IMG/VR virus record: IMGVR_UViG_3300014205_000184
Location: 3,162 to 67,161 of that record
DNA length: 64,000 bases
Source: a virus
Taxonomy: Duplodnaviria > Heunggongvirae > Uroviricota > Caudoviricetes
Strand: one strand, 5' to 3'
The first letter of the stretch is position 1; every line of letters starts with the position of its first letter. Shown here piece by piece: positions 17,965 through 18,036 of the stretch. The position numbers were made by a program, and so were the translations under genes. The notes beneath the pieces are model-generated. The model saw only the letters and a list, made by a program, of their open reading frames with translations. It searched no databases and was not told the origin of the DNA.

Positions 17965-17990
17965 TTTATATAGTATCCCAGTTACCGGTA

Positions 17991-18036
17991 ATTGGGGAGT
18001 ATACAGATAGTATCTGTGTATTCCCCAATTTTTTCG
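17991..18036 (+). terminator. Intrinsic terminator (18-bp stem plus T6) between the Ubl gene and the E2-like gene, overlapping a 20-bp palindrome
   Basis: The stem ATTGGGGAGTATACAGATA-gta-TATCTGTGTATTCCCCAAT is followed by TTTTTT. It overlaps the palindrome CCCAGTTACCGGTAATTGGG at 17977-17996. Confidence 0.5.

Follow-up and report, generated by a model that had tools for sequence, protein, structure and literature searches.

A strong hairpin separates a ubiquitin-like gene from downstream enzyme genes

The stretch of viral DNA analyzed here (the window; 64,000 nucleotides [nt] of the Caudoviricetes record IMGVR_UViG_3300014205_000184) carries an operon in which a gene for a small ubiquitin-like (Ubl) protein precedes genes for a candidate E2-like enzyme, a JAB/JAMM peptidase-like protein, and an E1-like adenylyltransferase (Table 1). 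The element under study is a hairpin located in the spacer between the Ubl gene and the first of the enzyme genes. A prior inspection of the same DNA, referred to below as the sequence-only reading, proposed that this hairpin is an intrinsic terminator and that it competes with an overlapping palindrome, such that a dedicated regulator could adjust expression of the enzymes.

The spacer between the Ubl gene and the gene for the 465-amino-acid (aa) protein is 88 nt long, compared with 24, 10, and 9 nt at the later junctions of the operon. It contains no open reading frame (ORF) and no repeated motif. The hairpin starts 25 nt after the Ubl gene ends (TAA stop codon, 17962–17964) and lies in the sense orientation. 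Its end is separated by 10 nt from the Shine-Dalgarno sequence of the next gene, and by only 22 nt from the ATG (18053) of that gene. A promoter scan limited to the sigma70-type consensus returned no sigma70-like promoter between 17965 and 18052. The Ubl gene itself is called in the same way in public contigs.

Table 1. Coordinates of features at and around the Ubl operon
Feature	Positions	Strand	Remarks
Near-consensus sigma70-type promoter	17536..17564	+	TTTACA-17-TATAAT with upstream TG; 11/12 matches
Leader hairpin	17594..17617	+	TAGCCGCAG-AATTTA-CTGCGGCTA, then AATTGTTTTC; -19 kcal/mol; stem-loop of repeated module
Ubl gene	17755..17964	+	69 aa, ThiS/beta-grasp type, ends ...PNIAGN; Pfam ThiS 23.7 bits (cut-off 22.5)
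Imperfect 20-bp palindrome	17977..17996		CCCAGTTACC/GGTAATTGGG; one mismatch; would form a weak, transient RNA hairpin
Probable terminator hairpin	17990..18030	+	19-bp stem (6 G-C, 2 G·U), 3-nt loop
T6 tract	18029..18034	+	First two T's base-paired at stem base; UUUU-CG after full stem
Shine-Dalgarno AAGGAG of 465-aa gene	18041..18046	+	6 nt past T tract; no space for an intervening promoter
465-aa protein, candidate E2-like enzyme	18053..19450	+	Conserved YDHPH(I/V)...C.GN motif; Cys-rich C terminus
JAB/JAMM peptidase-like protein	19475..20509	+	Contains HSHNSMGAFWSQQD; Prok-JAB 19.8 bits, below cut-off of 25; PADLOC JAB E = 0.0016
E1-like ThiF-family adenylyltransferase	20520..21182	+	220 aa; Pfam ThiF 59.6 bits; PADLOC E1-E2 models; 560 homologues

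The inverted repeat has arms at 17990–18009 and 18011–18030. RNA of this segment is predicted to fold into a 19-base-pair (bp) stem, including two G·U pairs, that is capped by a 3-nt loop. The sequence-only reading had described an 18-bp hairpin and a T6 run spanning 17991–18036. Both the hairpin and the T6 run are present, but the stem has 19 bp beginning at 17990, and it consumes the first two T residues of the run. The 3′ flank is TTTTCG, and hence four T's remain past the fully closed stem.

The stability of this structure is exceptional. Its calculated folding energy is -26.6 kcal/mol, compared with -6.6 ± 2.5 kcal/mol for dinucleotide-shuffled sequences (z -8.2), and none of the 200 shuffles matches it. 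The minimum free energy (MFE) and centroid folds of the larger segment from 17960 to 18055 both retain the complete hairpin. In a scan of 12–26 kb for terminator-like sites, the Ubl hairpin is the top site, and it ranks second in stability among 21,317 plus-strand windows when 50-nt segments are folded across the entire 64 kb. Only about five plus-strand hairpins of terminator type are found in this length of DNA. The minus-strand version of the Ubl hairpin is weaker (-19.3 kcal/mol) and lacks a T tail.

Several characteristics of intrinsic terminators are therefore seen together at 17990–18034, namely a stable stem-loop that contains G-C pairs, a U tract that follows immediately on the 3′ side, and a position just past the end of a gene. 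In this respect the sequence-only reading was correct in recognizing a strong hairpin of the intrinsic-terminator type directly after the Ubl gene.

Three other identities for the hairpin were considered and rejected. A promoter of the PeSL style overlapping the hairpin was discarded because neither inspection by eye nor the scan revealed acceptable -35 and -10 boxes. A recoding signal that stimulates frameshifting or stop-codon read-through was discarded because a hairpin 25 nt beyond the stop codon is too far away. A repeated or mobile element was discarded because the sequence occurs once in the window. A search for the exact hairpin sequence gave no match in IMG/VR.

The hairpin occupies the same position in diverged Ubl operons

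Relatives of the operon were gathered through its E1 and Ubl proteins. Searches that started from the 465-aa protein, either as a single sequence or as an alignment, confirmed no loci, and at the protein level they returned the protein itself and one distant relative. Among GenBank phages there is no near-identical DNA and no close cultured relative. Strain-level variation was read from two contigs, L001 and L002, and an exact anchor taken from the 3′ end of the Ubl gene gave no match in JGI metagenomes.

The L001 contig is identical to the window. L002 (JGI 3300037067) represents the same phage and carries only three real substitutions relative to the window in 8.7 kb. Two of these, A18028C and T18030G (positions 5976 and 5978 of L002), are located in the 3′ base of the terminator stem and the T tract, and yield the sequence CCCCACTGTTTT. 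The variant hairpin is predicted to have a 16-bp stem of -24.3 kcal/mol, with CUG separating the stem from the run of four U residues. The two changes may mark a genuine variant whose terminator is weaker, or they may stem from misassembly next to a hairpin in a contig that has runs of N.

More distant loci reveal the same layout. In L003, whose E1 protein is 64% identical, and in L007, L008, and L020, ∼87–95 nt lie between a Ubl gene of ∼70 aa and a gene of ∼475–530 aa that carries the YDHPH...C motif. For the first three of these loci, a gene at the JAB position and then an E1 gene are located downstream, with tight junctions after the first gap. The hairpins in all four gaps are predicted to be very stable (-20 to -26 kcal/mol, z -6 to -8). 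Their sequences are unrelated to each other and to that of the window, apart from a slight similarity between the stem bases of the window and L003. The position of the hairpin is conserved, whereas its sequence is not.

A wider comparison was made with 25 Ubl genes that a hidden Markov model identified among these loci and IMG/VR contigs. For each gene, the best hairpin in the ∼115 nt past the stop codon was ranked against those at all gene 3′ ends of the surrounding ∼10-kb locus. The Ubl 3′ end takes first rank in 11 of the 25 loci, where 1.6 would be expected, and one of the top two ranks in 17. We also applied a strict terminator rule, which calls for a stem of seven or more consecutive base pairs with at least three G-C pairs, a loop of 3–8 nt, and at least five T's in 8 nt. 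Sites of this type follow 11/25 Ubl genes and 17/394 other genes (Fisher P = 3.6e-8 for loci that are related to each other).

In each of four further metagenomic Ubl loci (L078–L081), the stop codon leads directly into a hairpin of -21 to -35 kcal/mol. The arrangement extends to the cultured Flavobacterium phage FpV4, whose E1 protein is 28.6% identical. There, a gene with a Ubl domain is followed by CTCCAATT-AGAAAT-AATTGGAG and seven T's, and then by the next gene. The hairpins of these four loci and of FpV4 are again unrelated in sequence. The phage operons thus consistently have a strong hairpin behind the Ubl gene as part of their design. That diverged operons almost always place so stable a structure at this junction points to selection for making Ubl in excess of its enzymes.

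The FpV4 gene (KT876724; L076 1107–2050) encodes the ‘hypothetical protein’ ALN97166, in which an N-terminal Ubl-like domain ending in KSGG is joined to a long acidic/lysine-rich tail. Downstream of this gene are two hypothetical genes and one annotated as ‘thiamine biosynthesis protein’, whose product is an E1-like ThiF protein.

Probable transcription termination and a possible post-transcriptional role

The best explanation for these characteristics, and one that we consider probable when taken as a whole, is that the region from 17990 to 18036 is a canonical Rho-independent (intrinsic) terminator placed where the Ubl gene ends. The hairpin would then function as an ordinary, probably leaky, terminator within the operon and as a 3′ stabilizer, and thereby set the ratio of Ubl to enzymes.

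A number of points weigh against this explanation. A clear T tract is missing at about one-half of the homologous junctions (e.g., those of L008, L029, L015, L010, L078, and L080), and for this reason the conserved feature may be the hairpin itself, with a role in stability or processing, and not termination. With 19 bp, the stem is longer than is usual for intrinsic terminators and comes close to the length of RNase III substrates. The efficiency of termination and the occurrence of read-through are deduced from the sequence. The promoter scan covered sigma70-type promoters, and phage-specific types might drive the downstream genes independently. Finally, the compared loci are not phylogenetically independent, and therefore the P values are indicative only.

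The first two points are those expected if the hairpin serves primarily after transcription, as a barrier to 3′ exonucleases or as an RNase III-type processing site that stabilizes the Ubl segment of a polycistronic transcript, with differential decay instead of termination setting the Ubl:enzyme ratio. The junction hairpins without a T tract are as stable as the others, which suggests that the stem itself is selected, and the 19-bp, nearly perfect stem in the window is close to the size of an RNase III substrate. Intercistronic stabilizers are well known, for example from the puf, pap, and mal operons. However, the hairpin in the window has the complete anatomy of an intrinsic terminator, with T6 located at the stem. 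The same anatomy, including the T tract, is found in L003, L020, L028, L045, L019, L051, and FpV4, and Ubl genes show a roughly tenfold enrichment of T-tract terminators behind them. A post-transcriptional role as the principal function is unlikely, although the hairpins without a T tract make it a serious partial rival. The two functions are not exclusive, as a terminated transcript would also carry a protective hairpin.

The overlapping palindrome is probably fortuitous

The palindrome begins 13 nt past the Ubl stop codon. The sequence-only reading described its arms as perfect, but CCCAGTTACC has GGTAACTGGG as its reverse complement, and the arms CCCAGTTACC and GGTAATTGGG are complementary at 9 of 10 positions in DNA. 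The mismatch places G17981 opposite T17992, which would form a G·U wobble in RNA. Arm complementarity scored 91%, and the match to the opposite strand has two mismatches. If a comparable palindrome is defined as 10 + 10 nt with no spacer and at most one mismatch, then the window contains five, compared with 3.5 ± 1.7 in block shuffles, which is the level expected by chance. As RNA, the palindrome is predicted to form an 8-bp hairpin with a 4-nt loop and an energy of -7.4 kcal/mol, and 12 of 200 shuffled sequences are equally stable. It is not conserved in homologues. These results suggest that the palindrome is probably a fortuitous weak hairpin.

A perfect 20-bp palindrome, ACCTAATATTAATATTAGGT, is located elsewhere in the window at 40876–40895, and is the only perfect one of that size.

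The sequence-only reading considered the palindrome and the terminator to be mutually exclusive structures, and took this as the signature of an attenuator or an operator-controlled terminator. In an attenuator of this kind, the palindrome hairpin would be an antiterminator that sequesters AATTGGG, and a protein or a ribosome terminating at the Ubl stop codon would set the extent of read-through by stabilizing or destabilizing it. The palindrome indeed shares 7 nt (17990–17996) with the 5′ arm of the terminator. Exclusion holds for the bottom 7 of the 19 bp, but not for the remainder of the stem. A fold that combines the palindrome hairpin with the upper 12 bp has an energy of -22.0 kcal/mol, compared with -27.0 kcal/mol for the full terminator. 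This difference of 5 kcal/mol corresponds to pair probabilities for the palindrome of 3e-5 to 4e-4 in the ensemble, or an equilibrium occupancy below 0.05%.

On a growing transcript, the palindrome hairpin is the predicted MFE structure until position 18023 has emerged. By 18026, when the 3′ arm of the hairpin is available, the terminator is in charge. The palindrome start would also lie at the edge of the footprint of a terminating ribosome, which would reach about 17977. Thus the palindrome fold may form briefly as a transient intermediate on nascent RNA, to be displaced by the 3′ arm of the terminator. An adjacent nucleated helix should displace it fast relative to pausing at the U tract, given the general behavior of strand displacement, and only the bottom 7 bp are contested.

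Pairing of the 40 nt upstream with the terminator 5′ arm is not above that of shuffled upstream sequence in the window (P = 0.117), and across loci it reaches P < 0.05 in 3 of 22 cases, one of which is an artefact of how the hairpin was delimited. A weak counterpart in L003 pairs ACC-A-GCAAT with ATTGT-G-GGT (P = 0.39), and L051 has an 11-bp upstream hairpin that overlaps the terminator arm (P about 0.02–0.03). In contrast, no palindrome-type overlap with the terminator arm is present in L007, L008, L020, or L078–L081. A search of 15–22 kb with Rfam at E ≤ 1 gave no match at the site and only a chance S15 match elsewhere, and the junction showed no sensor in the form of a leader peptide, an aptamer, or a repeated motif for protein binding.

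Classical attenuators (trp-type, T-box, riboswitches, and protein-mediated antitermination) likewise have an upstream segment that forms first and pairs with the 5′ arm of a terminator. Unlike these, the element described here lacks a sensing module and is intercistronic rather than located in a 5′ leader, and its alternative helix spans 7 of the 19 arm positions, at chance level and without conservation. We conclude that the proposed signature of attenuation is not supported, and that a regulated attenuator at this site is very unlikely.

A third possibility is that termination is essentially complete, such that the Ubl gene forms a monocistronic unit, with the E2-like, JAB, and E1 genes expressed from an unrecognized type of promoter (e.g., a phage-specific middle or late promoter, or one that needs a phage factor) that overlaps the intergenic region or the Ubl gene. 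In its favor, the hairpin is very strong, and phage genomes commonly use modified promoter classes that a scan for the sigma70-type consensus would not cover. However, the 22 nt from hairpin to ATG and the Shine-Dalgarno sequence 6 nt past the T tract leave no space for a promoter, and this tight arrangement of hairpin, ribosome-binding site, and ATG is repeated in relatives. Any such promoter would have to precede the hairpin or lie inside it, and polymerases starting there would still run into the terminator. The likelihood of a complete terminator with a separate downstream promoter is very slim.

Almost no weight can be given to the idea that the palindrome is a DNA operator at which a dimeric phage or host regulator forms a roadblock or modulates the terminator: its 9/10 dyad symmetry about an ACCGGT core is of a kind that occurs at chance frequency in the window, its half-site is found six times where 3.0 are expected (7 of 100 shuffles reach six, which is not significant), the promoter scan predicts no sigma70-type promoter that overlaps it, it is not conserved in homologues, and none of the nine neighboring small proteins tested has a DNA-binding Pfam domain. 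The last observation and the absence of excess half-sites also count against the dedicated regulator that had been suggested, and neither the operator nor the regulator is supported.

The Ubl transcript and its upstream module

The near-consensus promoter at 17536–17564 is likely the start of the Ubl transcript. It is conserved in L003 and in a second copy within the window at 14903–14931.

This promoter belongs to an intergenic module of ∼100 bp that is present twice in the window, at 14892–14995 and at 17525–17627, the latter directly 5′ of the Ubl gene, and that occurs in L003 at 1872–1975. Its elements are, in order, a sigma70 promoter with an extended -10 TG, AAAGAAGAA(G/A)TATGTCTA, a CCGCAG...CTGCGG hairpin, and TTTGTTTT. 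The module is kept in L003, where proteins are only ∼64% identical, while the remaining leader cannot be aligned. A mini-ORF that starts at a conserved ATG (17589; MSSRRIYCG*) crosses the module hairpin. The module could encode a small RNA of ∼55 nt or serve as a promoter-proximal attenuator.

PeSL cassettes of T4-like phages (PMC2839356, PMC4122927) resemble this module, rather than the Ubl terminator, in having a repeated promoter and stem-loop. In contrast to those cassettes, the stem-loop of the module is ∼30 nt downstream from the -10 box, and the module occurs in only two copies per 64 kb. There is also no evidence of shuffling or of a T4-like phage.

Identity of the operon proteins

The sequence-only reading used the labels E2, JAB, and E1. 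The E1-like protein matches the Pfam ThiF family (59.6 bits). For the protein at the JAB position, a JAMM-like motif is visible, though its Prok-JAB score is below the Pfam threshold. The 465-aa protein is a candidate E2-like enzyme solely by virtue of its HPH...C.GN motif. Its family has no match in Pfam, PADLOC, PHROGs, or PDB sequences, and an AlphaFold 2 model made with two sequences gave a pLDDT of 41.5 and is unusable.

The 465-aa protein and its counterparts in L003, L007, and L008 form an orphan family of ∼465–530 aa with an invariant YDHPH(I/V)...C.GN motif, which resembles the HPN...Cys of E2 enzymes. In the window and in the L003 homologue, these proteins also have a C-terminal cluster of CxxC pairs. 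Homologues of the Ubl protein have a conserved GN terminus, with or without one extra residue, instead of GG.

Other features of the window

The strongest hairpin in the window is located at 50828–50867 (-27.2 kcal/mol, 18-bp stem, T/A-rich tail), between a 260-aa ORF (50038–50820) and a gene for a 1030-aa primase/helicase (50890–53982). Another hairpin, at 61902–61933 (-21.8 kcal/mol, followed by seven T's), is positioned where plus-strand genes meet minus-strand genes (61940 onward) and is probably a terminator that closes the long plus-strand block.

Small genes of early type form a block that precedes the Ubl operon and includes a phage peptide deformylase with a C-terminal SEC-C motif (14339–14887) and a protein with a T7 gp5.9-like RecBCD inhibitor domain (16228–16557, 43.2 bits). 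Downstream of the operon, at 23604–25439, is a gene for a DNA N6/N4 methyltransferase that contains an intein (Pfam Intein_splicing and N6_N4_Mtase). The homologue of this gene in L003 has an intein too, with a NUMOD3 motif.

Comparison with known terminators

The Ubl hairpin shares with canonical Rho-independent terminators a stem-loop with a G-C block, a U tract that follows immediately, a position ∼25 nt past a stop codon, and a stability far above background. It differs in that the 19-bp stem is unusually long and in that the four basal A·U pairs leave four U's unpaired. Four unpaired U's past the closed stem predict less than complete termination.

Classic examples of terminators within operons are found at the pilin genes of pilus operons and in the rplL-rpoB attenuator. 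Internal terminators that give differential expression have been mapped genome-wide in the operons of E. coli (PMC4161252) and have also been described in an archaeon (PMC10450193). The Ubl hairpin is like these elements in being placed after a first gene whose small product is highly needed, with read-through that would feed the rest of the operon. A further likeness is that its position, and not its sequence, is kept across homologous operons. The context is different, since the operon here is a phage Ubl/E2-like/JAB/E1 operon that is known from sequence alone. A literature search, which was not exhaustive, found no description of a hairpin element at a Ubl junction.

Proposed mechanism and implications

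In the mechanism that we propose, transcription would start at the sigma70-type promoter upstream of the Ubl gene, and most transcripts would end in the U tract to give a short Ubl messenger RNA (mRNA) of about 460 nt. The 19-bp hairpin would protect the 3′ end of this mRNA. A fraction of polymerases would read through into the E2-like, JAB, and E1 genes, as is predicted from the presence of only four U's past the closed stem and from the four adjacent base pairs, which are all A·U. The downstream genes, which are tightly joined and have no recognizable promoter, would be fed by this read-through. The outcome would be a fixed excess of the substrate, Ubl, over the catalysts.

The analysis shows the structure, its exceptional stability, its position, and the conservation of that position across diverged operons; partial termination, and the expression ratio as the selected function, are inferred. 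The proposal in the sequence-only reading that Ubl is made in excess of the enzymes gains support from the recurrence of the hairpin with unrelated sequences, the tight junctions among the downstream genes, and the lack of a sigma70-like promoter, whereas the proposal that read-through is regulated does not. One false lead is removed, as nothing at this site gives evidence of a switch, of an operator, or of a regulator dedicated to it.

A more elaborate possibility is that the hairpin is a conserved and tunable valve of phage Ubl operons, in which read-through is actively controlled during infection by an antitermination factor of the phage or host, or by a terminating ribosome that acts on the palindrome hairpin. 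We regard such control as very unlikely. If it were true, then variants like A18028C/T18030G in L002 would retune the Ubl:enzyme ratio.

As an element, a strong intrinsic terminator behind a small gene is ordinary, and its value is modest and comparative. FpV4 provides a cultured system in which the layout of Ubl gene and terminator could be tested. More generally, mutation or removal of the hairpin should shift the ratio of Ubl to enzymes, and the element may therefore offer a handle for expressing and dissecting the poorly understood conjugation systems of phages.

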